Origin: Escherichia phage vB_EcoM_CRP22 | Sequence record: OQ708377.1 | DNA: 64,000 bases | Direction: 5' to 3' (one strand) | Shown: piece by piece, positions 8,434 through 63,304 of the stretch | Position numbering within the stretch: position 1 is the stretch's first letter | Layout: each line of letters opens with the position of its first letter | Program-made: the position numbers and the translations under genes | The notes under the pieces: generated by a model | What the model was told of the DNA's origin: nothing | Databases searched by the model: none | Seen by the model: only the letters and a program-made list of their open reading frames with translations

Positions 8434-9849
8434 ATGAGCGAGTTATTTAAACATGCGCACCTTCATGTAGGTCGAACTGAAAATGGTGCTGTAAACCATA
8501 CTTCATCAATGTCTGCTCTGGTAGACTTCTACAAAGCCGCTGGCTCAAGCCGTAGCAATGTAGAAATCTTACCAGACCTGTTCTACAAAGCTTTGCGTGA
8601 GGATGTTGATGTTGCAGTTCGTATTTTACTGCATATGCGAGATGTACGAGAAGGTATGGGTGAGCGTAAAGCTTTCCGAACTGTTTTGCTTCAAACGATT
8701 GAAGATAAGGTTTTAGAACCTACACAGGTTCTTCGCATTATGGATAAGATTGCAGAACTTGGTCGTTTTGATGACTTCAAAATCTTCGTAGGTACTCGTT
8801 TCGAGACAGATGCCTTCAAACATTTAGAAGCAGCATTACTAGACCCTGCAACAGCAGGTTTAGCGGCTAAGTGGTTACCACGAGTAAAACCACGCCACAA
8901 ACAGTTTGTAAAACGTTTCTGTAAGTTTGCAAACTTAAGCGAGAAGGAGTATCGCACACTGTTATCTGCACTGTCTGATACGGTTGAGCAAAAAATCTCT
9001 GCTAATGAGTTTGGTAAGATTGACTACAGCAAGATTCCTTCACTCGCTGCTGCACGTTACCAAAAACTCTTTAACCGTAAAGATGGGGAACGTTACAAAG
9101 CTTACATCGAGTCCCTCTCAAAAGGTGAGGCTAAGATTAACGCTGGTGCTGTTTACCCATATGATGTGATTAAATCTATTAAGTATGGTAATGCAGATGT
9201 TGCTAACGAGCAGTGGAAAGCACTACCAAACTGGATGGCAGAAGGTGAAAACATCTTGTGTATGACTGATGTTTCAAGCTCAATGTCTTGGGTGAATCTT
9301 GGCTCAATTACTGCCCTTGATATTGGTGTATCACTTGCCTTGTATGTAGCAGAACGCAATACAGGTTGCTTTAAAGATGAGTTAATGGTCTATTCAACAA
9401 ACCCTCATTTCATTGAACTGAGTGGTGATTTACGAAACCGTCATCGTCAGGTGATGCGTCATGTTGAATATGGTTCAACTAACTTACAAGCAGCCTTTGA
9501 CCGCATTCTTGAGACAGGTAAGAGAAACAACTTGACTCAGAAAGATATGCCAAGTAAGCTTATCATCTTCTCCGATATGGAGTTCAATCAGGTTGATGGA
9601 GCTAACGGTCGTACAAACTTTGAAGCAATTCAGAGCAAGTACAAAAAAGCTGGATATGAGATGCCACAACTGGTATTCTGGTACTTAGCAAACCGTAATG
9701 GCACTTGCGAAGTGTCTGTTAAGGATAATGGTGTAGCAATGGTATCAGGGTTCTCTCCAGCCACTTTAAAAGCTCTGCTTGGTGGTGAGAAGTTTGACCC
9801 AATCAGCGTAATGCTCAAAGCAGTAATGATTGACCGTTACATCTGGTAA
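8434..9849 (+). CDS. von Willebrand factor A (vWA) domain protein; possible Ro60/TROVE-like protein
   Basis: 471 aa; MIDAS-type DxSxS motif (CMTDVSSSMSW) after a ~270-aa N-terminal region; Ro60 assignment is inference from context only. Confidence 0.6.
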   Translation: MSELFKHAHLHVGRTENGAVNHTSSMSALVDFYKAAGSSRSNVEILPDLFYKALREDVDVAVRILLHMRDVREGMGERKAFRTVLLQTIEDKVLEPTQVLRIMDKIAELGRFDDFKIFVGTRFETDAFKHLEAALLDPATAGLAAKWLPRVKPRHKQFVKRFCKFANLSEKEYRTLLSALSDTVEQKISANEFGKIDYSKIPSLAAARYQKLFNRKDGERYKAYIESLSKGEAKINAGAVYPYDVIKSIKYGNADVANEQWKALPNWMAEGENILCMTDVSSSMSWVNLGSITALDIGVSLALYVAERNTGCFKDELMVYSTNPHFIELSGDLRNRHRQVMRHVEYGSTNLQAAFDRILETGKRNNLTQKDMPSKLIIFSDMEFNQVDGANGRTNFEAIQSKYKKAGYEMPQLVFWYLANRNGTCEVSVKDNGVAMVSGFSPATLKALLGGEKFDPISVMLKAVMIDRYIW

Positions 9850-9867
9850 AAAGTTTTGAAAAGGGTA

Positions 9868-9896
9868 TTGACAATGTGTTTAATACCCTTTAATAT
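9868..9896 (+). promoter_or_regulatory. sigma70-like promoter embedded in an inverted repeat, upstream of tRNA array
   Basis: TTGACA - 17 nt - TAATAT; flanked by aagggtatt ... aataccctt. Confidence 0.5.
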
Positions 9897-10014: not shown

Positions 10015-10091
10015 CTCTGTTTAGCTCAGCTTGGTAGAGCGTTCCGTTTGGGGCGGTAAGGCCGGAGGTTCAAGTCCTCCAACAGAGACCA
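10015..10091 (+). tRNA. tRNA-Pro (anticodon TGG)
   Basis: 7-bp acceptor ctctgtt/aacagag, D-arm GCTCAGCTTGGTAGAGC, T-arm ggagg-ttcaagt-cctcc, CCA encoded. Confidence 0.75.
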
Positions 10092-10098
10092 AATTAAT

Positions 10099-10176
10099 GT
10101 TCCAGTAGACAAAATGGTATAGTCACCACTCTTTCAAAGTGGATATTTGAGGGTTCAAATCCCTTCTGGAACGCCA
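10099..10176 (+). tRNA. tRNA-Glu (anticodon TTC)
   Basis: Acceptor gttccag/ctggaac, anticodon stem ccact/agtgg with loop ctTTCaa, T-loop ttcaaat, CCA. Confidence 0.75.
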
Positions 10177-10267
10177 GTTTTGACAGAAGACCAATTACAG
10201 CAAGTTTAATCTTATTCATCTGACACGAAATCGGACAAAGAAGAGATTTGGTCTGGTCATTAAGAAT

Positions 10268-10344
10268 TGCGGGTATAGAGAAAGGGCGTCTCACATGTCT
10301 CATTAGCATGGTATCGGCAGGTTCGACTCCTGCACCCGCCTCCA
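10268..10344 (+). tRNA. tRNA-Met (anticodon CAT)
   Basis: Acceptor tgcgggt/acccgcc, anticodon loop ctCATta, T-arm gcagg-ttcgact-cctgc, CCA. Confidence 0.65.
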
Positions 10345-10421
10345 ATTTTGCAGAAGACCGTATTCAGCAACAAACTACTTTTTGCGGATAAAAGAAAAAA
10401 CACGGTCTGGCAATGTATTAA

Positions 10422-10497
10422 GGTTAGGAAGCACATAAGGTATGTGCGGTCGCCTGTTAAGCGAATGGCACAGGGTTCGAATCCCTGACTAACCGCA
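10422..10497 (+). tRNA. tRNA-Asn (anticodon GTT)
   Basis: Anticodon loop ctGTTaa, T-arm caggg-ttcgaat-ccctg; acceptor has one mismatch. Confidence 0.6.
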
Positions 10498-10506
10498 AAA
10501 TTAAAT

Positions 10507-10594
10507 GTGTCGTTATCCCGTAGATGGTAGCGGTGGGGACTGTAAATCCCTTGTCATTGAGACTCGGTAGGTTCGACTCCTACACGGCACACCA
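10507..10594 (+). tRNA. tRNA-Tyr (anticodon GTA), long variable arm
   Basis: Acceptor gtgtcgt/acggcac, anticodon stem gggga/tccct with loop ctGTAaa, long extra arm, T-arm gtagg-ttcgact-cctac, CCA. Confidence 0.7.
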
Positions 10595-10616
10595 ACACTT
10601 AGCGAGATACTTAGTT

Positions 10617-11045
10617 ATGAGAGATGAAGTATACAAATCACAACTTGGTATGAGTTTAGGAACTGCACAAAACAGACTAGTAAAAGATTTGCTATTCGAT
10701 TTTATATGTAAAACAAATCAAAATAGATGTTTTCAGTGCGGAAAAGAAATGACTAGGGATGATTTCTCCATCGAGCATAAGGTTCCGTGGAGACATAGTG
10801 AAAACGCAAAAGAGCTTTTCTTTTCACTGGATAATATCTCTTATAGTCATCTTAAATGTAATATGAAAGCAGCAAGACCAGCACAGATAAGTGAAAGAAA
10901 ACATAAAACAGTTGAACACGGAACTGCGTATAGCTATTACAAAGGCTGTAGATGCGAGGAGTGTAGGTTGGCTAAGAATGCTGCTAGCAGGAAGAACTAT
11001 AGCCCAGAAAGGCGTAGGAAGAAGTATTTAAGAAATGGCACATAG
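10617..11045 (+). CDS. HNH endonuclease (free-standing, inside tRNA array)
   Basis: 143 aa from internal ATG; CFQCGKEM...EHKVPW...HLKCN zinc-binding HNH-like motifs; the track ORF start at 10524 overlaps tRNA-Tyr and is rejected. Confidence 0.7.
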   Translation: MRDEVYKSQLGMSLGTAQNRLVKDLLFDFICKTNQNRCFQCGKEMTRDDFSIEHKVPWRHSENAKELFFSLDNISYSHLKCNMKAARPAQISERKHKTVEHGTAYSYYKGCRCEECRLAKNAASRKNYSPERRRKKYLRNGT

Positions 11046-11049
11046 TTTT

Positions 11050-11125
11050 GGGGTATTAGTTTAGACGGTTAAAATACGGGATTGTCTCTCCTGAGCCGCG
11101 AGTTCGATTCTCGCATACCTCGCCA
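11050..11125 (+). tRNA. tRNA-Asp (anticodon GTC)
   Basis: Acceptor ggggtat/atacctc, anticodon stem cggga/tcctg with loop ttGTCtc, T-arm gcgag-ttcgatt-ctcgc, CCA. Confidence 0.7.
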
Positions 11126-11273
11126 ATTTTGAGAGGGCTATTTAGCCCCTCCCTTAAAGAGTTATTACGAGTATTCTTTAAAGGAGCAGAAGACCAAATT
11201 CAGCAAGTTACTTAAAATTTCAAGCCAATTTAATTTTGAAAAATTTAAAACTTGGTCTGGCTTAACAAATTTA

Positions 11274-11404
11274 CAGAAGACCGTTTACAGCAAAACTTAA
11301 ACAATCTATTTCTCGGTAAAGAAAAGGCGAAGGTTCGATTCCTTCACTCGGCAGATGTCGAGTTGGTGTAATGGTAGCACTTAAGATGATAAACAACGGT
11401 CTGG
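11274..11404 (+). ncRNA. Candidate structured ncRNA: circularly permuted tRNA-like module enclosed by an 8-bp stem (possible Y-RNA/YrlA-like element)
   Basis: Linear order is stem strand agaccgtt, T-arm gaagg-ttcgatt-ccttc, acceptor 3' strand actcggc, 4-nt loop, acceptor 5' strand gtcgagt, D-arm gtgt-aatggta-gcac, stem strand aacggtct; the acceptor halves pair over 7 bp. Confidence 0.35.
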
Positions 11405-11405
11405 T

Positions 11406-11551
11406 AATTATCTTTGCAGTAGCTTATGTGGCTAATTATGTCGTCCCATGAGTGCCGATGAATTTCCTTAGCATGATTCTAGATTAGCTTAATAGGGAAT
11501 GACTCTACAGACCCTTTAGCAAGGTCTGCGTAGGTTACTGCAAAGATAATT
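11406..11551 (+). ncRNA. Candidate structured RNA domain closed by a 16-bp stem
   Basis: aattatctttgcagta (11406-11421) is the perfect reverse complement of tactgcaaagataatt (11535-11550), enclosing ~112 nt with an internal cagacc...ggtctg hairpin. Confidence 0.3.
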
Positions 11552-11555
11552 TAAT

Positions 11556-11631
11556 GGAAGTGTAGCAGAATGGTGATGCGGCAGACTTTTAATCTGACAG
11601 GCGATGGGTTCGAATCCATCCACTTCTACCA
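11556..11631 (+). tRNA. tRNA-Lys (anticodon TTT)
   Basis: Acceptor ggaagtg/cacttct, anticodon loop ctTTTaa, T-loop ttcgaat, CCA. Confidence 0.6.
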
Positions 11632-11635
11632 ATAT

Positions 11636-11712
11636 GGTTCAGTCGCAGATAAGGTAATGCAGGGGTCTCATAAGCCCTATGAATGTGGGTTCGATTCCCA
11701 TCTGAACCTCCA
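11636..11712 (+). tRNA. tRNA with anticodon CAT (Met, initiator-like, or Ile2)
   Basis: Acceptor ggttcag/ctgaacc, anticodon loop ctCATaa on a stem with three consecutive G-C pairs, T-loop ttcgatt, CCA. Confidence 0.7.
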
Positions 11713-11714
11713 AT

Positions 11715-11790
11715 GCTGTGAAAGCACATATGGATGTGCATTCGGCTGATAACCGAAAGGAAGAAGGTTCGAATCCTTCTCACAGTACCA
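11715..11790 (+). tRNA. tRNA-Ile (anticodon GAT)
   Basis: Acceptor gctgtga/tcacagt, anticodon stem ttcgg/ccgaa with loop ctGATaa, T-arm gaagg-ttcgaat-ccttc, CCA. Confidence 0.7.
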
Positions 11791-11805
11791 ATTTCAATAA
11801 AGTTG

Positions 11806-11834
11806 TTGACATTGAGATGTGACCACTTTATAGT
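11806..11834 (+). promoter_or_regulatory. sigma70-like promoter inside the tRNA array
   Basis: TTGACA - 17 nt - TATAGT, preceded by A-rich tract aaagttg. Confidence 0.5.
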
Positions 11835-12126
11835 AACTAAAATACTTCATAATATGTATAATTCAAACACCAATACATGAGTATTAGACGTAATGCAATG
11901 TGGGGAAATTTGTTGTACATATTCTGAATAGTTTTCGTTGCGTAGCGTCTATTTTGCAAATTTAAAATAAATGCAAACGACAATGTTTTTCTGGCAGTAG
12001 CTTGATAGGCTAAACACCAGTGAGGTCTTCCAATCCCTCATCAAAGAATTTGGCGTACTCGCCCACGGTATGATTAATAAGGTGGGCATCTTTAAGGGTT
12101 TTTAAGAGAGTCTTTAAAGATAATTA

Positions 12127-12208
12127 CGGGGCGTATCTCAGCTGTCTTCTAAACAGCCGTTAACCGAGTAAGTGGAGTATGCGGGTTCGAGTCCTGCCGC
12201 CTCGACCA
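12127..12208 (+). tRNA. Atypical tRNA-like gene, possibly Arg (anticodon TCT); D-arm not resolvable
   Basis: Acceptor cggggcg/cgcctcg, T-arm gcggg-ttcgagt-cctgc, CCA; clean stem gctgt/acagc with loop ctTCTaa but no canonical D-arm by eye. Confidence 0.4.
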
Positions 12209-12222
12209 ATTTTGGAGAAATC

Positions 12223-12570
12223 ATGAAAACTTGTATTAGGTGCAAACTTAGCAAGGATGAAAATGATTTCTACATGAAAGATGGTAGAAGAACTCATTCA
12301 TACTGTAAAAAGTGTGTTAATGAGCAAACCATAGAAAGACAAAGAGCACTTAAACTCTCAGCTATTGAGTACAAAGGTGGTGTTTGTCAGGATTGTGGTA
12401 AAAGGTATCATCCAGCAGTGTATGACTTCCATCATTTGAATCCTTCAGAGAAAGATTTTAACATTGCTCATAGAAGAAGTCTTAAGTTCTCTCAGGAGCT
12501 TAAGAACGAACTTGACAAATGTGTTTTGCTATGTTCAAATTGCCATAGGGTAAGACATGCAAAGTATTAG
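12223..12570 (+). CDS. HNH endonuclease (free-standing, inside tRNA array)
   Basis: 115 aa from internal ATG (MKTCIRCK...); CxxC pairs and FHHLNP...LLCSNCHRVRH HNH motif; the track start at 12172 overlaps the preceding tRNA-like gene. Confidence 0.7.
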   Translation: MKTCIRCKLSKDENDFYMKDGRRTHSYCKKCVNEQTIERQRALKLSAIEYKGGVCQDCGKRYHPAVYDFHHLNPSEKDFNIAHRRSLKFSQELKNELDKCVLLCSNCHRVRHAKY

Positions 12571-12707
12571 TTAGCAGATTGCTTAGACGACCTTATCGGG
12601 TCTCCGTGTAAGGAGGTGGTCTGTATCTCATGTTTTCCAGAACATGTAAATAATCTGAGAAGGGGCTTTACAGTGTTGAGATAATACGGTAAGCTTCGAA
12701 TTATAAT

Positions 12708-12790
12708 ATGGGACGATGTTAAGACTCTAAGGCATGAGCAACGGCTTCCAACACCGTTTCAAAGGGGTTCAACTCCTCCGTCCCATGCCA
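12708..12790 (+). tRNA. Atypical tRNA-like gene with an apparent 9-nt anticodon loop
   Basis: Perfect acceptor atgggac/gtcccat, T-loop ttcaact, CCA; best anticodon helix aacgg/ccgtt encloses cttccaaca (9 nt); D-region longer than canonical. Confidence 0.4.
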
Positions 12791-12803
12791 AAGTCTTATT
12801 AGG

Positions 12804-12893
12804 GGTAGGTAGCGGCTAATGGTAGCCAAACTGTCTTGAAAACAGTTGCCACTGTAGAGATACGGTGAGGGTTCGACTCCTTTACTTACCGCC
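12804..12893 (+). tRNA. tRNA-Ser (anticodon TGA), long variable arm
   Basis: Acceptor ggtaggt/acttacc, anticodon stem actgt/acagt with loop ctTGAaa, long variable arm, T-loop ttcgact. Confidence 0.7.
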
Positions 12894-13148
12894 TAATAAG
12901 ATTTAAAGCCAAGCTTCATTCGGATGTTGCTTTGGTATCCCTCGTGTATTGTCGTACACACTGATAAAGCACCTGGTAGGTGTCACGGAGAAGAGATAAT
13001 ATCAAGCTCTCCAAAGGTTCTAGTCACCGGATTAAACAAGACTATGCAAAGACCAATTTAGGTCTTTTTAGAGGGCTTCTAAGGTTATTACAGCTTGTTG
13101 TGGAACCTTGTTGCTTAGGTTCTTAGAAGTTCTCTAAAAAGATTTAAT

Positions 13149-13225
13149 GCACCTATAGCCCAATTGGTAGAGGCAGCAGACTTAGAATCTGTTCAGTGTG
13201 AGTTCGAATCTCTCTAGGTGTACCA
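13149..13225 (+). tRNA. tRNA with anticodon TAG (Leu-type), short variable arm
   Basis: Acceptor gcaccta/taggtgt, anticodon stem gcaga/tctgt with loop ctTAGaa, T-loop ttcgaat, A73, CCA. Confidence 0.6.
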
Positions 13226-13232
13226 AATTAAT

Positions 13233-13308
13233 GCAGGTGTAGCAAAATGGTTATGCGGCTGACTCTTAATCAGTAAGACGATGGGTTCAATTCCCTCCAC
13301 CTGTACCA
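13233..13308 (+). tRNA. tRNA-Lys (anticodon CTT)
   Basis: Acceptor gcaggtg/cacctgt, anticodon stem gctga/tcagt with loop ctCTTaa, T-loop ttcaatt (weak T-stem), CCA. Confidence 0.55.
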
Positions 13309-13314
13309 AACATT

Positions 13315-13390
13315 GGGGTCATAGTTTATATGGTTAAAATTCGAGTTTTGCAAACTTGGGAACTGAGTTCAATTCTCAGTGACTCCACCA
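13315..13390 (+). tRNA. tRNA-Ala (anticodon TGC)
   Basis: Acceptor ggggtca/tgactcc, anticodon stem cgagt/acttg with loop ttTGCaa, T-arm ctgag-ttcaatt-ctcag, CCA. Confidence 0.7.
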
Positions 13391-13396
13391 ATTAGT

Positions 13397-13471
13397 GCAT
13401 CCATAGTTTAAACGGGAAAATTACAGTCTTCCAAACTGAGGTTGAGGGTTCGATTCCCTCTGGATGCTCCA
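13397..13471 (+). tRNA. tRNA-Gly (anticodon TCC)
   Basis: Acceptor gcatcca/tggatgc, anticodon loop ctTCCaa, T-arm gaggg-ttcgatt-ccctc, CCA. Confidence 0.7.
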
Positions 13472-13478
13472 AATTAAT

Positions 13479-13555
13479 GCTGCTTTCGTATAATTGGCTA
13501 TTACACATCCCTTGTAAGGATGGAAATGCAGGTTCGAGTCCTGTGAGCAGCACCA
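13479..13555 (+). tRNA. tRNA-Thr (anticodon TGT)
   Basis: Acceptor gctgctt/gagcagc, anticodon stem catcc/ggatg with loop ctTGTaa, T-arm gcagg-ttcgagt-cctgt, CCA. Confidence 0.7.
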
Positions 13556-13651
13556 ATTCAGAGGTCAAGTGAAAGACCGCTTTGAGTCAACTGAAGACCG
13601 TAACAAATCCCACGGAGTTGAGTTAGCGGCACAACTTCAGACCTCTTTCAT

Positions 13652-13726
13652 ACTCGCTTAGTTTATATGGTAAAACATCAACCTTACAAGATGAAGAAAA
13701 AGGTTCAAGTCCTTTAGTGAGTACCA
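13652..13726 (+). tRNA. tRNA-Val (anticodon TAC)
   Basis: Acceptor actcgct/agtgagt, D-stem gttt/aaac, anticodon loop ctTACaa, T-arm aaagg-ttcaagt-ccttt, CCA. Confidence 0.65.
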
Positions 13727-13727
13727 T

Positions 13728-13805
13728 GTTCCAGTATCCCAATTGGCAGAGGATGCAAGCTCAAACCTTGTATTAGTGACGGTTCGAATCCGTCTTGGAA
13801 CACCA
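13728..13805 (+). tRNA. tRNA with anticodon CAA (Leu-type), short variable arm
   Basis: Acceptor gttccag/ttggaac, anticodon stem gcaag/cttgt with loop ctCAAac, T-arm gacgg-ttcgaat-ccgtc, A73, CCA. Confidence 0.6.
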
Positions 13806-13810
13806 ATTTT

Positions 13811-13885
13811 GCAGGATTAGTTCAAATGGATAGAGCAACAGTCTACGAAGCTGTTAATAGGGGTTCGAATCCCTTATCCTGCGCC
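13811..13885 (+). tRNA. tRNA-Arg (anticodon ACG)
   Basis: Perfect acceptor gcaggat/atcctgc, D-arm TAGTTCAAATGGATAGAGC, anticodon loop ctACGaa, T-loop ttcgaat, CCA. Confidence 0.75.
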
Positions 13886-13892
13886 AATTAAA

Positions 13893-13969
13893 TAGGGGAT
13901 TAGTTTACAAGGTTAAAACCTCGGTCTTTGAAATCGAAGAAGTTGGTTCAATTCCAACATCCCCCGCCA
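13893..13969 (+). tRNA. tRNA-Gln (anticodon TTG)
   Basis: Acceptor aggggat/atccccc (1-72 mismatch), D-stem gttt/aaac, anticodon stem tcggt/atcga with loop ctTTGaa, T-arm gttgg-ttcaatt-ccaac, CCA. Confidence 0.65.
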
Positions 13970-13971
13970 AT

Positions 13972-14050
13972 GCTCCATTACTCCAATTGGCAGAGAGGCC
14001 AGACTTAAAATCTGTGTTATGTATCGGTTCGAATCCGATATGGAGTACCA
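13972..14050 (+). tRNA. tRNA with anticodon TAA (Leu-type)
   Basis: Acceptor gctccat/atggagt, anticodon loop ctTAAaa, T-arm atcgg-ttcgaat-ccgat, A73, CCA; D-arm parse ambiguous. Confidence 0.55.
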
Positions 14051-14055
14051 AATTT

Positions 14056-14131
14056 AGCGGTATAGCATAACTGGCAATGCAGCAGTCTCTGAAGCTGTCT
14101 TATTAAGGTTCAAATCCTTATGCCGCTGCCA
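14056..14131 (+). tRNA. tRNA-Gln (anticodon CTG)
   Basis: Acceptor agcggta/tgccgct, D-stem gcat/atgc, anticodon stem gcagt/gctgt with loop ctCTGaa, T-loop ttcaaat, CCA. Confidence 0.65.
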
Positions 14132-14162
14132 CTTCTAAGGGTTCTTACGAGAGTCCTTAAAT

Positions 14163-14238
14163 GTGGCCTTATCATAAAAGGTAATGACCCATGCTGTGAA
14201 CATGGTCTATACGGGTTCAAATCCCGTAGGTCACCCCA
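14163..14238 (+). tRNA. tRNA-His (anticodon GTG)
   Basis: Acceptor gtggcct/aggtcac, anticodon stem ccatg/catgg with loop ctGTGaa, T-arm acggg-ttcaaat-cccgt, CCA. Confidence 0.7.
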
Positions 14239-14243
14239 ATTTA

Positions 14244-14320
14244 TAGTCCAAGTAGCTTATATGGTTAAAGCGCGTGTCTGAAAAACATGAGAAGAGGGTT
14301 CAAATCCCACTGGACTACCA
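14244..14320 (+). tRNA. tRNA-Phe (anticodon GAA)
   Basis: Acceptor tagtcca/tggacta, D-stem gctt/aagc, anticodon stem cgtgt/acatg with loop ctGAAaa, T-loop ttcaaat. Confidence 0.6.
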
Positions 14321-14337
14321 ATTTCAAAGGTGCTTAA

Positions 14338-15071
14338 TGAAAGAGATGACAGAACAAGGTAAGGAGATTTTTAATCTCTTAAAAACCGGTAGAGGGTTTT
14401 CTAATCCCCTTATTACTGGTGCAGCAGTTCTCGGTGGAACCGTAGCTACCTCTACATCACTTGTAAACTCTATTAGCTCTGTAACAGACCCTACAATAAA
14501 GGATAAACTTGTTGCTGCTGGACTTACAACAGTTCTGCTTAACAGCTTTACAACGAGTCTGACAAGCACTACATCAACCACTAAAACACCGACAGATTAC
14601 GGTCAAAAGTCCATTGATGAGTTTTCATCACGTATGCAGGTAGCAAAAGGATACTCTAATGTTATGGGTGCAGCAGGAGAGCAAGTTGGTTGTACACCAT
14701 TTAGTGGTATTATGGGTGTTGCTACAGAGTATGGTCAAAAAGCTATTGACACAATTAACAGTGCACTAGACGGTGTTAATGATGTATTAAGTGACTTACA
14801 AGATGCTATTGATAAAGGTCTTGATACTATTTCTGATTTAGCTAACCAAGCTGTTAGTAAGATTAATGAAGGTATTTCGAAGATTACAGCTTATGCAGAT
14901 GAAGTTGTGCAGATGATTGAAGAAGAAGCTGCCCTTATTGCAGAGTACCTTAAAACGAATATCAATGGGTTCTTAGCAGGTATCTTACCAGACTGGTTTG
15001 ACGATGCTTGTAAAACTGGTGTGATTGATACTATTGCAACACCAGAAATGAAGAACGCATTACAGAAATAA
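14338..15071 (+). CDS. hypothetical Ser/Thr-rich protein encoded inside the tRNA array
   Basis: 244 aa from internal ATG (MKEMTEQGKEIF...); the track start at 14274 overlaps tRNA-Phe; long S/T-rich region followed by a helical C-terminus. Confidence 0.45.
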
Positions 15072-15072
15072 T

Positions 15073-15165
15073 GGAAGATTAACCCTAAAAGGTAAGGGAG
15101 CAGTTTGCTAAACTGCCAGTAGCTGAGAAATCGGTGTACCAGTTCAAGTCTGGTATCTTCCTCCA
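15073..15165 (+). tRNA. tRNA-Ser (anticodon GCT), long variable arm
   Basis: Perfect acceptor ggaagat/atcttcc, anticodon stem gcagt/actgc with loop ttGCTaa, long variable arm, T-arm accag-ttcaagt-ctggt, CCA. Confidence 0.75.
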
Positions 15166-15169
15166 ATTT

Positions 15170-15245
15170 GAATCCGTGACAGAAATGGCTATGTGCCTGT
15201 CTGCAAAACAGGTTTATAAGGGTTCGAGTCCCTTCGGATTCTCCA
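15170..15245 (+). tRNA. tRNA-Cys (anticodon GCA)
   Basis: Perfect acceptor gaatccg/cggattc, anticodon stem cctgt/acagg with loop ctGCAaa, T-arm aaggg-ttcgagt-ccctt, CCA. Confidence 0.75.
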
Positions 15246-42747: not shown

Positions 42748-42860
42748 AATGACCTCAAAGTTATATTAAATTTTGTATTACGATGAGTATAAAAATAAGC
42801 TATAACACCTGACTTGTCAACAGATTTTATAGCTTATTTGGCAGATTTTTTATAAGGCTA

Positions 42861-43140
42861 CTGCCATCCTTCCATACTTTACCGAACATCACCCTACTGA
42901 ACCCGACCCTACCTCACCCGACCCAACCGAACCGTACCGAGCACAGCCTTATTAAAAGACCCTGTTTAAAGACCTTTTAAAAAGGTAAGTCTCATTTTAA
43001 TGTAGCTGAGACTAACTACCCATACTTCACATCACCGCACCATACTACACCTGACACCACCTTACACCACCGCACCATACCTGACCAAGCTACACATCAC
43101 TTAAAAACCCTCTTAGAAGACTCTTAAGTGATGCTGGTGA
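42861..43140. repeat. Strand-asymmetric C/A-rich intergenic tract with short direct repeats
   Basis: Plus strand nearly G-free: acccgaccctacctcacccgacccaaccgaaccgtaccg and caccgcaccatac repeated; minus strand carries GGG-N2-GGG-N7-GGG-N2-GGG. Confidence 0.5.
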
Positions 43141-43197
43141 GTACCCGTTGGTTTATGCTGCTCAGTATACTCACCAAATTTTCTATGTCAACAACTT

Positions 43198-54305: not shown

Positions 54306-55352
54306 ATGGAGAAGTACACATTAACAAAACTTCCCGATTCAGTTACACATGTTTTTATTGACTCTGACAGTATTGCCTATAAAGGTGCTTGTGTAGTTGA
54401 GAAAGCAAAATATAAATATGTCAATAAACTCACAGCAGAAGAGTCTGAGCCATTTGATAATGCGAAAGATGCTGCAAGATGGTTATCAGACCAGAGAATC
54501 CTTGTGGAAGAGCTTGGCCTGACATTTGATGAAGATGAATGGGAAAGACAGACTTGGAAAGAAGCTAAGAGTGAAAAAGAAGCTATCATGGCTACTCAAC
54601 AGGTGCTTCAGGAATGGCTTAAGATTGTTGGTAAAGAAAGAACTTGGGTAGGTTATTTAACAGAGAAAGGTGTGCATAAGCATAAAGACATTAAAGGTCT
54701 TGAGCACCAATATCAAGGTAACCGTAAAGATGCTGTCACACCAACACACTTAGTTGCTTGTCGTGAGTATCTTCTGTCAAGACCAGAGTTTAAATTGATT
54801 CTTGATGGATTTGAAGCTGACTCTATCGTTATTGCTAAAGCTGAAAAGATGGGTAAAAAGGCTGCCTTAATGAGTATTGATAAAGACCTTCGCCAAGCTG
54901 AAGGGACTTACTGCATTGATATGACCTATGAGAAGTCACCTTTGATTTTCATTGCTGATAACAACGTTGGTGAAATTTGGGATTGTCCAATAAAATCGAC
55001 ACCAAAAGCTAAGAAGACAGTTGGGGTAGGTTTTAAATTTCTTTGTTACCAAGCTGTGGCTGGTGATAATGCAGATAACTATTTTGGTTTAAAGGGCGTT
55101 GGTAAGGTTGCTGTAATGAAAGCCCTTGAAGGTAAAACTACTTACAAAGAGTGTCTTGATGCAATTTATGAGCTTTATGCTAAGAAAGAGTCATACACTT
55201 ATGTCTCGTGGGATGGTCAAACAATTACCAGAACACCCTTAGAGTTAATGCAGCAACACTTTTTCTTAGCTTATCAGGAAAGAAATAAGAAAGACGATTT
55301 TACTTTTGATAAGTATGGGTGGACACCAAATGTTAACTCAACAAACTCTTAA
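54306..55352 (+). CDS. putative 5'-3' exonuclease / RNase H (FEN-like)
   Basis: 348 aa; N-terminal VFIDSDSIAYKG resembles the flap-endonuclease/T4 RNase H N-terminal motif. Confidence 0.45.
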   Translation: MEKYTLTKLPDSVTHVFIDSDSIAYKGACVVEKAKYKYVNKLTAEESEPFDNAKDAARWLSDQRILVEELGLTFDEDEWERQTWKEAKSEKEAIMATQQVLQEWLKIVGKERTWVGYLTEKGVHKHKDIKGLEHQYQGNRKDAVTPTHLVACREYLLSRPEFKLILDGFEADSIVIAKAEKMGKKAALMSIDKDLRQAEGTYCIDMTYEKSPLIFIADNNVGEIWDCPIKSTPKAKKTVGVGFKFLCYQAVAGDNADNYFGLKGVGKVAVMKALEGKTTYKECLDAIYELYAKKESYTYVSWDGQTITRTPLELMQQHFFLAYQERNKKDDFTFDKYGWTPNVNSTNS

Positions 55353-57958: not shown

Positions 57959-57984
57959 AGGGAGCCTCTTCGGGGGCTCTTTTC
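57959..57984 (+). terminator. Rho-independent terminator
   Basis: gggagcc-tcttc-gggggctc followed by TTTT. Confidence 0.65.
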
Positions 57985-62059: not shown

Positions 62060-62066
62060 AATGAAA

Positions 62067-62088
62067 GGGTCTCTTCGGAGACCTTTTT
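62067..62088 (+). terminator. Rho-independent terminator
   Basis: gggtctc-ttcg-gagacc followed by TTTTT. Confidence 0.65.
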
Positions 62089-62107
62089 AGCATGTAAAGG
62101 GGCAATA

Positions 62108-63304
62108 ATGAACAAAGTACAGATTATTAAAAAGAATGGCTCACTCGAAGAACCTGATATCAAAAAAGTTTTAGCAGCAGTCACAAAGTCAGCTAACAGG
62201 GTTGGATATAAAGAACTCCCACCAGATGTTACCCAAGCTCTTGAGTCAGCATTTATGAGGATTCTGGTAAAATCTACTAAACAGAATAATTTGCTAATTT
62301 CTGTAAATGATATTCACAGTATTGTTGAGGGTGCTTTGGCAGAAGTCAATCACGAGATTTATGAGTCTTACTCAACATATAGAAATTACCGTAAAGAAGT
62401 TGCTCAAAATTGGGATGAGCTTTACCAGAAGACCAAAGACACACTCTTCTTAGGTGACAGAGAGAATGCTAACTTTGATAGCAGTTTAATTTCTACAAAA
62501 GGTTCAATTATTCGTGGTTATCTGACTAAAGAAATCTTTAAACAGTACCACTTAACACCAGAGGAACTTGAAGCCATTGAAAAAGGGTTTATCTACATCC
62601 ATGACTTAAGAGACCTAATTTTTGGTGGTATCAACTGTTGCCTGTTCGACATTGGTAAAGTCCTGAAAGGTGGCTTTGAAATGTCCGGCATCGAATATTG
62701 TGAACCAAAGTCTGTGCTGTCGGCATTACAGGTTATTGGTGACGTAGTTCTTTCAGCAACTGCACAGCAATTTGGTGGATTTACTTTAGCAGAGATTGAT
62801 AAGGTACTTGTACCGTATGCTAAGAAGTCTCTACGCTATCATGCTGAGAAAGCAGCATCTTATGGTATTCCTAAAGAGCATTACCACAATTATGTCATGG
62901 AGCAGCTACAGATTGAGCTAACTCAAGGTTTCCAGTCACTTGAAATGAAACTAAATACTGTACCTTGTAGTCGTGGGGATTTTGCATTCACAACTTTGAC
63001 ATTCGGGTTACTTGACTCAGATATGTCCAATGAAGATAACCGACTGCAATATATAATTGCAAGTACTCTCCTAGATGTTCGTATGAATGGACAAGGTAAG
63101 AGCAAAAAGCCTGTTGTATTCCCTAAACTGGTTTATATTTATGACCAGAAGAGACATAATGAGAATATCTGTCAAGGACACCTGTACAGTAAAGCCATTG
63201 AGTGTTGCTCTAAAGCAATGTATCCAGATTTCTTAAGTGTATCTGGTCATGGTGCTGTAGCAGAGGCTTTTGAGCGTTCTGGCAAGGTAATTTCACCGAT
63301 GGGT
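62108..63304 (+). CDS. nrdD: anaerobic ribonucleoside-triphosphate reductase (NrdD), exon 1 only
   Basis: ATP-cone N-terminus; IHDLRDLIFGGINCCLFDIGKVLKGGFE and ...SPMG align with T4 NrdD as I recall it, where the protein continues CRSFLS; here the frame stops right after PMG at an intron-like sequence. Confidence 0.8.

Follow-up and report, generated by a model that had tools for sequence, protein, structure and literature searches.

Conserved RNA hairpins in and beside the tRNA array of Escherichia phage vB_EcoM_CRP22: candidate RNase III-type processing signals with apparent relatives in T5- and T4-like phages

Escherichia phage vB_EcoM_CRP22 carries a motif of about 30 nucleotides (nt) that recurs in and around its transfer RNA (tRNA) genes, and this repeated motif is one family of conserved RNA hairpins. 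The window analysed here is a stretch of 64,000 nt of this phage (sequence record OQ708377.1). Within it the family has five copies (A, B, C, E, and F) and one related hairpin, D. The tRNA region of the window shares 94% identity with Felix O1-like myoviruses (Felixounavirus; SME50, FelixO1) and contains 25 tRNA genes on the plus strand (10015-15245) with HNH endonuclease genes interspersed. We lean towards the view that the hairpins are ribonuclease III (RNase III)-type processing signals in primary transcripts. This kind of element is already known, and what is added here is its sharing, as judged from sequence, between Felix O1-, T5-, and T4-like phages.

A covariance model, R1, was built from copies A, B, and C, three orthologous A/C variants, and two T5-like sequences, and it was run over all 64 kilobases (kb) with filters off. 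Its seed sequences in the window score 51-60 bits. Beyond A, B, C, E, and F the only matches below an expectation value (E-value) of 0.5 are weaker ones to the opposite strands of these partly palindromic sites. The copies all fold into stems of 10-19 base pairs (bp) with loops of 4-5 nt. The six elements of the window are as follows.

11149-11186, plus strand: copy A, CUCCCUUAAAGAGUUAUUACGAGUAUUCUUUAAAGGAG; R1 score 57.4 bits; folding energy -20 kcal/mol, z -2.9; stem of 9-13 bp.
12086-12123, plus strand: copy B; R1 score 51.1 bits, and a folded stem of 15 bp.
13058-13147, plus strand: hairpin D; stem of ~40 bp with a branched tip and 26-nt arms that are 85% complementary; -37.6 kcal/mol, z -5.45.
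14129-14166, plus strand: copy C; R1 score 59.6 bits; core stem of 10 bp (14136-14159) with a UACG loop, and 4 outer pairs beyond two mismatches.
42947-42985, minus strand: copy F, absent from the preliminary description of this DNA; R1 score 36.9 bits, E-value 1e-6; stem of 12 bp.
43095-43133, minus strand: copy E; R1 score 27.7 bits, E-value 3e-4; stem of 19 bp.

The preliminary description, made from the sequence, had quoted motif strings for three of these sites, and they are present as cccttaaagagttattacgagtattctttaaagg (copy A, 11151-11184), ctttaagggtttttaagagagtctttaaag (copy B, 12090-12119), and cttctaagggttcttacgagagtccttaaatg (copy C, 14132-14163). The motif is enriched over shuffled sequence: a 26-nt degenerate pattern that matches the B and C sites only gives 2 matches in the window, as compared to 0 in 100 dinucleotide shuffles. 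It is also kept in the homologous spacers of relatives. Copy C is identical in FelixO1 and Michonne, and copy A has an orthologue in ~30 Felixounavirus/Mooglevirus loci, with one pair exchanged from A-U to G-C. A related copy that had been placed at 43.1 kb is recovered as copy E, but on the other strand, since it folds on the minus strand (-19.6 kcal/mol, against -9.2 kcal/mol on the plus strand), which is the transcribed strand there. The stretch 13067-13140, also put forward as a related copy, is no simple repeat of the others: it belongs to the longer hairpin D and has just the CTTCTAAGG/CTTAGAAG segment in common with the family. Hairpin D is not detected by R1 in the run over the 64-kb window and is tied to the family by its UAAG/CUUA segment. 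The description of the motif as lying between tRNAs holds strictly for copy C only. Copy B has a non-coding RNA on one side and a tRNA-like gene on the other, copy A follows tRNA-Asp, and copies E and F occupy an intergenic region without tRNAs.

Relatives were gathered by an IMG/VR pattern scan and from annotated records, and R1 aligned 38 matches, which represent 24 distinct sequences. In these, 90% of the cells at paired positions are able to pair, as compared to 78% in shuffles and 35-65% with slid partners. Changes on both sides are seen in 11 of the 17 pairs, and the observed covariation was reached by none of 500 shuffles. The paralogues A, B, C, and F and the copies of T5 and phiEa21-4 have diverged enough for real exchanges; an example is the replacement of G-C by A-U at the pair joining alignment columns 12 and 31. 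One G·U pair is retained in 21 of the 24 sequences. The conserved G·U pairs and the compensatory changes therefore indicate that the copies act as RNA. Because several of the pairs are G·U, one strand folds far better than the other in B, D, and E; for D the opposite strand reaches only -26.9 kcal/mol. All six elements of the window and all copies in other phages are sense to local transcription, whether on the plus or the minus strand. Copies E and F are on the minus strand, and the flanking genes and a promoter at 43191-43164 have the same direction.

These observations make a role at the level of DNA very improbable, whether the sites were to serve a phage factor as operator or promoter or to serve HNH homing endonucleases as targets or recombination sites. 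Such a role would suit the partly palindromic TTAAG/CTTAA half-sites, the HNH genes nearby (10524-11045 and 12223-12570), the Michonne HNH gene that lies exactly between hairpin D and tRNA-Leu, and the differing tRNAs that follow copy B in different genomes. However, a G·U pair is an A·C mismatch on the other strand, the transcribed strand gives the better fold in B, D, and E, the compensatory changes keep RNA pairing, and the orientation is always with transcription. Other HNH insertions of FelixO1 have no adjoining hairpin, and no promoter consensus is found. A promoter scan finds no -35/-10 hexamers at 16-18 nt spacing in any copy, and the promoter-like sites all lie outside the copies (11806-11834, 9868-9896, 43191-43164, and 42820-42792). 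The suggestion that the motifs are alternative promoters is not supported: no copy has a sigma-70-like -35/-10 pair, copy C fills a 31-nt gap inside a polycistronic tRNA array, and the G·U pairs and compensatory changes reflect selection on RNA pairing and not on DNA sequence. The suggestion that they are protein-binding sites survives only as recognition by an RNA-binding nuclease, a DNA-binding role being unlikely.

The idea that the hairpins are remnants or targets of HNH cassettes was also rejected, given that the Michonne HNH gene stands beside an intact D and that other HNH insertions have no hairpin nearby. The Michonne gene (L002, 4818-5283) is inserted between D and tRNA-Leu, at the place of 13147/13149 of the window, and ATTTAAT is repeated at both junctions. 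The 5' boundaries of tRNAs appear to be preferred insertion points for HNH cassettes.

Annotations of two relatives label members of the family as 'terminator', namely copy C in Michonne and copy E in Escherichia phage ASO1B. The copies resemble intrinsic terminators in being stable intergenic stem-loops, and the labels come from automatic terminator finders. That they are weak intrinsic terminators or pause hairpins is nevertheless highly unlikely. No copy, C included, is followed by a U-tract (the downstream sequences are AAAUGUGG, AGAUAAUUAC, GCAGAAGACC, and UGUGUAGC), the stems are rich in A/U and G·U pairs, and a terminator scan flags none of the six elements. The evident terminators of this phage, in contrast, are G+C-rich stems with U tails, such as those at 62062-62089 and 57959-57982. 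Copies also lie inside tRNA arrays; C is in mid-array, where termination would remove the downstream tRNAs.

The hairpins match no Rfam family. A search of the tRNA region and of 42.65-43.3 kb against Rfam 15 (E-value at most 1) returns tRNAs and chance-level matches only and no hairpin family. Hairpin D has a match to a plant microRNA at 26.7 bits, well under the threshold of that family. BLAST of copy C against 5,426 complete Escherichia coli genomes gives no match and hence no host copy.

The position of the hairpins is as regular as their structure. At most sites the extended stem ends 0-5 nt ahead of the 5' end of a tRNA, as the following cases show.

Copy C: next gene tRNA-His; the core stem ends 3 nt before it.
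Copy B: next gene the tRNA-like gene 12126-12205 (Rfam tRNA, 31 bits); gap of 2 nt.
Hairpin D: next gene tRNA-Leu (13149); gap of 1 nt.
Copy B of Michonne: next gene tRNA-Arg; gap of 1 nt.
phiEa21-4 copy: next gene tRNA-Leu; gap of 2 nt.
T5/BF23 copy: next gene tRNA-Arg; gap of 5 nt.
Second T5-like copy: next gene tRNA-Lys; gap of 0 nt.
T4 hairpin: next gene tRNA-Gln; the R1 match ends 1 nt before it and the core stem ~10 nt before it.

Copy C, inside an unbroken run of 14 tRNAs, occupies the entire 31-nt spacer between tRNA-Gln, which ends at 14131, and tRNA-His, which starts at 14163. Copy B forms the 3' end of a promoter-driven RNA that is free of open reading frames (ORFs). Its orthologues are found in Felixounavirus, Michonne, and phiEa21-4; in each of them a tRNA begins 1-2 nt further on, though not always the same tRNA. 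Hairpin D is kept with compensatory changes in Citrobacter phage Michonne. Copy A starts 24 nt 3' of tRNA-Asp and overlaps a small G+C hairpin (11132-11152). Copy E begins ~25 nt downstream of the inferred start of the strong sigma-70-like promoter at 43191-43164 (11 of 12 matches), is followed by a GGU-rich ORF-free RNA of ~110 nt, and is kept in FelixO1, ASO1B, and Moogle. Copy F stands at the start of the second of two diverged tandem units, each made up of a hairpin and a GGU-rich stretch. The internal duplication covers ~103 nt at 69% identity, and ASO1B and Moogle have one or two copies.

The family appears, from sequence and structure, to be common to Felix O1-, T5-, and T4-like phages. 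The IMG/VR scan finds ~30 T5-like genomes with UAUUUUUAAGAGUUUUUACGAGAGUUCUUAAAAAUA before tRNA-Arg, a 17-bp version with the same UACG loop. In the record of the BF23 tRNA region (NC_042564) this hairpin falls within the final 40 nt of 'RNAX, stable RNA with unknown functions', which lies downstream of promoter P16-17 and directly before tRNA-Arg. In T4, CAAGGGUUCUU-GUUA-GAGAGCCUUUG precedes tRNA-Gln, the first gene of the tRNA cluster. This hairpin and copy C have in common the 10-mer AAGGGUUCUU (also AAGGGTTCTT) and GAGAG-CCTT; by a rough hand calculation, ~1e-5 matches to their common pattern are expected by chance in 169 kb. R1 gives the T4 hairpin 15.4 bits (E-value 0.06), the second-best match in 10 kb. 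Among T4 and its relatives the loop varies (GUUA, AUUU, UCCU, GUUU, and AACA) while the stem is kept.

The pairs that vary least argue for RNase III. A minimal substrate of this enzyme, derived from T7, is an 11-bp helix below a tetraloop, and the sequence of the loop is irrelevant (Pertzev & Nicholson, PMC1540722; PMC3867540). Beside the scissile bonds lies the proximal box, which consists of G-C, A-U/U-A, A-U, and A-U/U-A (PMC1540722). G-C and C-G are antideterminants and are forbidden at its positions 2 and 4 (PMC1540722; PMC3867540). In the 24 distinct sequences the most invariant pairs are found at bp 7-10 from the loop. They are G-C in 18 sequences (G·U in 4 and A-U in 2), A-U in all 24, A-U again in all 24, and U-A in 13 or A-U in 10 (together 23 of 24). 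These four pairs correspond to the 'TTAAG...CTTAA' of the preliminary description and, on their base composition and order, read as an RNase III proximal box in the correct orientation. No antideterminant is present, as positions 2 and 4 are A-U or U-A in 24 and 23 of the 24 sequences, respectively. The box occurs in 4 of the 66 perfect hairpins of at least 10 bp in the window, as compared to ~0.3 per shuffled window. The pairs adjacent to the loop are U-A in every sequence and then C-G (15) or U·G (8), and a second U-A/U·G step follows two pairs lower. Among the roles first suggested for the motif, processing sites are therefore the option favoured, in the form of sense-strand RNA hairpins at the junctions of RNA units that resemble the RNase III sites of T4 and T7. 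The maturation of T4 tRNAs involves E. coli RNase III (review PMC4810235, citing McClain 1979, Gurevitz & Apirion 1983).

A second model, R2, was made from eight T7 RNase III sites alone. As extracted, these sites show a common hairpin, CAAGG...CCUUUAU/GAU. R2 ranks copies C, B, and E as its matches 3, 6, and 11 in 128 kb; in their own loci the phiEa21-4 and BF23 copies come first and the T4 hairpin second. It is very unlikely that the family recurs among the best R2 matches by chance, and what this recurrence reflects is resemblance, not membership. The top R2 matches in the window are T7-consensus-like hairpins (e.g., GCUCAAGAC...GUCUUUAUGCUUAU) at 54676-54705 (minus strand), 62202-62246 (minus strand), and 9860-9891 (plus strand), which may be additional sites of processing, away from the tRNA region.

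Several points weigh against RNase III. In T4 the RNase III cut lies in the leader before tRNA-Gln, and tRNA-Gln is lost in rnc- cells; the parallel leans on the leader hairpin being this cut site. The T7 site positions in R2 follow Dunn & Studier, the RefSeq record having no annotation of the sites. No R2 match anywhere is significant, those of the family having 10-14 bits and E-values of 0.3-7. R1 finds no T7 sites, so the family and the T7 sites are not homologous in sequence. The alignment in which covariation was measured was fitted to R1 itself, and many of its rows are close relatives. The match to the distal box (U-A, U·G) is ambiguous in its register relative to the T7-derived uR1.1. 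Copies B and E have G·U instead of G-C at position 1 of the proximal box. In a literature search, no processing or transcript-end data came up for the stable RNAs of T5/BF23 or for Felixounavirus transcripts. The stems of A and C, at 9-13 bp, are at or just below the 11-bp minimum of the T7 minimal substrate (PMC1540722). Finally, the conservation of the UACG/UAAG loop and the apical stem in the Felix O1 and T5 groups is unexplained by RNase III alone because this enzyme does not read loop sequence (PMC1540722); it may be due to common descent.

The short stems of A and C would trouble us less if the hairpins were passive structures uncut by RNase III, which act as barriers to exonucleases after cleavage by RNase P or RNase E, or as insulators in the folding of tRNAs and spacers. 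The BF23 hairpin is indeed the 3' end of an RNA annotated as stable, and the hairpins lie directly ahead of RNase P sites. Passive hairpins, however, fail to explain why the four proximal-box pairs are invariant over paralogues and three lineages while other pairs covary. Also, trimming of the tRNA-Gln 3' end would be impeded by a stable hairpin that begins 4 nt past the CCA, if no endonuclease took this hairpin away. We hold this explanation to be rather unlikely.

The apical conservation, in turn, is what would be expected of sites for another sequence-specific RNA-binding factor, such as a phage protein or a second host nuclease (RNase E or the RNase P holoenzyme). The Felix O1 group shares with the T5 group the apical stem and loop UUCU-UACG-AGAG, a part of the hairpin that should not matter to RNase III. 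In addition, just before the tRNA cluster lies the gene of a Ro-like RNA-binding protein (DUF2828+DUF7788). Yet the loops of T4-like phages vary freely while the stem is kept, no homologue of the Ro-like protein is found in T4- or T5-like phages, and no Rfam family matches. Recognition by such a factor is, in our estimate, improbable. That T4- and T5-like phages lack the Ro-like protein suggests that the common factor comes from the host. As a common partner of the hairpins the protein was rejected, since its sampled relatives include no T4- or T5-like phage and the count of Escherichia phages among them (119) equals that of Felixounavirus. The protein itself has 471 amino acids and is encoded at 8434-9849 on the plus strand directly upstream of the tRNA/small-RNA cluster; annotations of relatives name it 'Ro-like RNA-binding protein' or 'vWFA protein'. 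It could have the spacer RNAs as partners, in the manner of Y RNAs.

If RNase III does act on these hairpins, it would bind the stem of 10-19 bp through the G-C/A-U/A-U/U-A proximal box near the base and cut at the foot of the stem. The upstream RNA, either a tRNA or a stable non-coding RNA, would thereby be parted from the downstream tRNA, on which a leader of a few nt would be left for RNase P. Cleavage at T7 sites leaves a 3' hairpin on the upstream RNA. Likewise, a cut on the 3' side only would let the upstream RNA here retain a 3'-terminal hairpin that might guard it against exonucleases. Placed by analogy with T7 uR1.1, the predicted cuts are as follows.

Copy A: between 11155 and 11156, and between 11181 and 11182.
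Copy B: between 12092 and 12093, and between 12118 and 12119.
Copy C: between 14135 and 14136, and between 14161 and 14162.

With the cuts in copy C, tRNA-Gln would still carry 4 nt (CUUC) beyond its CCA, and tRNA-His would start with a leader of 1 nt.

A wider proposal, which we make tentatively, is that the hairpins are the punctuation of a phage system of stable non-coding RNAs, in which they release and 3'-cap tRNAs and dedicated small RNAs and are portable among T4-, T5-, and Felix O1-like phages. The RNAs so released would include a transfer-messenger RNA (tmRNA)-like RNA, with a tag reading ANDNVFLAVA* in the style of a resume codon, and the tandem GGU-rich RNAs headed by E and F. If the reading as RNase III sites is correct, it would give concrete cleavage sites for the maturation of the 25-tRNA array in Felix O1-like phages, which are widely used as diagnostic and therapeutic phages of Salmonella and E. 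coli. It would also correct the 'terminator' annotations in relatives and provide a possible reason why RNAX of T5/BF23 accumulates as a stable RNA. One RNase III-type hairpin would have been kept or exchanged, beside tRNAs, across three unrelated coliphage lineages. With the covariance model, processing junctions could be marked, and with them the ends of small phage RNAs that lack annotation, such as the tmRNA-like RNA.

The tmRNA-like, tag-encoding RNA ranks as more interesting than the hairpin itself. Its 'mRNA-like domain' lies at 11935-12088 on the plus strand, ~150 nt of sequence upstream of copy B, behind the promoter at 11806-11834. The tag ORF reads ...AAAAUAAAU GCA AAC GAC AAU GUU UUU CUG GCA GUA GCU UGA, which encodes ANDNVFLAVA*; the tag of E. 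coli tmRNA is ANDENYALAA. In 7 of 9 variants there is an in-frame stop 8-12 codons upstream of the tag, and in 6 of those 7 no ATG lies in between. The stop codon of the tag is within a hairpin, and conserved, covarying hairpins follow. The Rfam tmRNA model matches at 15 bits over positions 56-295 only, ARAGORN calls no tmRNA in the element, and no tRNA-like domain is evident within it. A role for copy B as a tmRNA helix was rejected: the Rfam model aligns it as a generic hairpin with low posterior probability. By BLAST the element is found in 626 phage records, in none of which it is annotated as RNA. They belong to unrelated families and span Ounavirinae, Kuttervirus, N4-like Gamaleyavirus, and 46-49 kb siphoviruses of Klebsiella and Vibrio, and the element is also present in a lambdoid phage, downstream of Q, and in a T5-like phage. 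The variants of the tag are conservative (ANDAQFLAVA, ANDNTFLAVA, ANDDQFLAVA, ANEEMYLAVA, and ANEEVYLAVA). A literature search found no description of this element.

The gene that follows copy B, at 12126-12205 on the plus strand, is an aberrant tRNA-like gene on which ARAGORN is silent. It has a 7-bp acceptor stem with G3·U70, ACCA, a UCU anticodon arm, and a long variable region, and it has no D arm. It is 85-88% identical to 'tRNA-OTHER' of unrelated Klebsiella and E. coli phages, and Michonne has a normal tRNA-Arg(UCU) in its place. The ORF-free region that holds E and F covers 450 nt (42748-43197, minus strand) and consists of the strong promoter followed by the two diverged tandem hairpin units. 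In each unit the hairpin comes first, and GGU-rich RNA follows for ~100-110 nt, in which sequences such as UAUGGUGCGGUG are repeated. Relatives do not all have the same number of units: there is one hairpin in FelixO1, and there are three in Moogle. This region may encode non-coding RNAs or be an R-loop-prone origin.

Other structured spacers are present in the tRNA region on the plus strand. A second spacer-repeat family, CAGAAGACC(A/G)nnUnCAGCAA ... GGUCUGG, occurs at ~10183, 10351, 11186, 11273, and 13556-13651. It forms long-range stems in the Glu-Met, Met-Asn, Asp-Lys, and Thr-Val spacers and is kept in FelixO1 and Michonne. Further tRNA-like fragments and structured spacers are seen at 11300-11555 and 12700-12795. 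They include a T-arm-like GAAGGTTCGATTCCTTC near 11330, a 17-nt long-range stem (11405-11421 with 11536-11553) that encloses ~115 nt directly before tRNA-Lys, and a tRNA-like GGGACGATG...GGTTCAACTCCTCCGTCCCATGCCA near 12710-12790 that ARAGORN does not call.

Three known systems are close enough for comparison. The hairpin of BF23/T5 RNAX is a true family member by its R1 score of 59 bits. It lies 5 nt before tRNA-Arg with a promoter upstream, and the order of promoter, non-coding RNA, hairpin, and tRNA is that of copy B. It differs in how it has been described: the annotated feature in the record is the full RNA of 784 nt, in which the hairpin is not marked separately, and neither a function nor a processing enzyme is named. 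In the T4 leader hairpin the stem is AAGGGUUCUU / GAGAGCCUUU, as compared to AAGGGUUCUU / AGAGUCCUUA in copy C. Both hairpins have ~11 bp and a 4-nt loop and lie in sense orientation a few nt before the 5' end of a tRNA. T4, however, has a single copy at the head of its cluster, behind a middle promoter, and a loop that differs in sequence and is variable, whereas the phage studied here has several copies both inside and outside the array. The upper stem of the T7 sites (R0.3, R0.5, R1.1, R1.3, R4.7, and R18.5) likewise has ~10 bp, the first of them A-U, A-U, and G-C (CAAGG...CCUU). These sites also have a loop of 4-5 nt and the proximal-box consensus, and they too lie at junctions between the RNA units of polycistronic transcripts. 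They differ in that they have an internal loop and a lower stem and separate mRNAs, not tRNAs.

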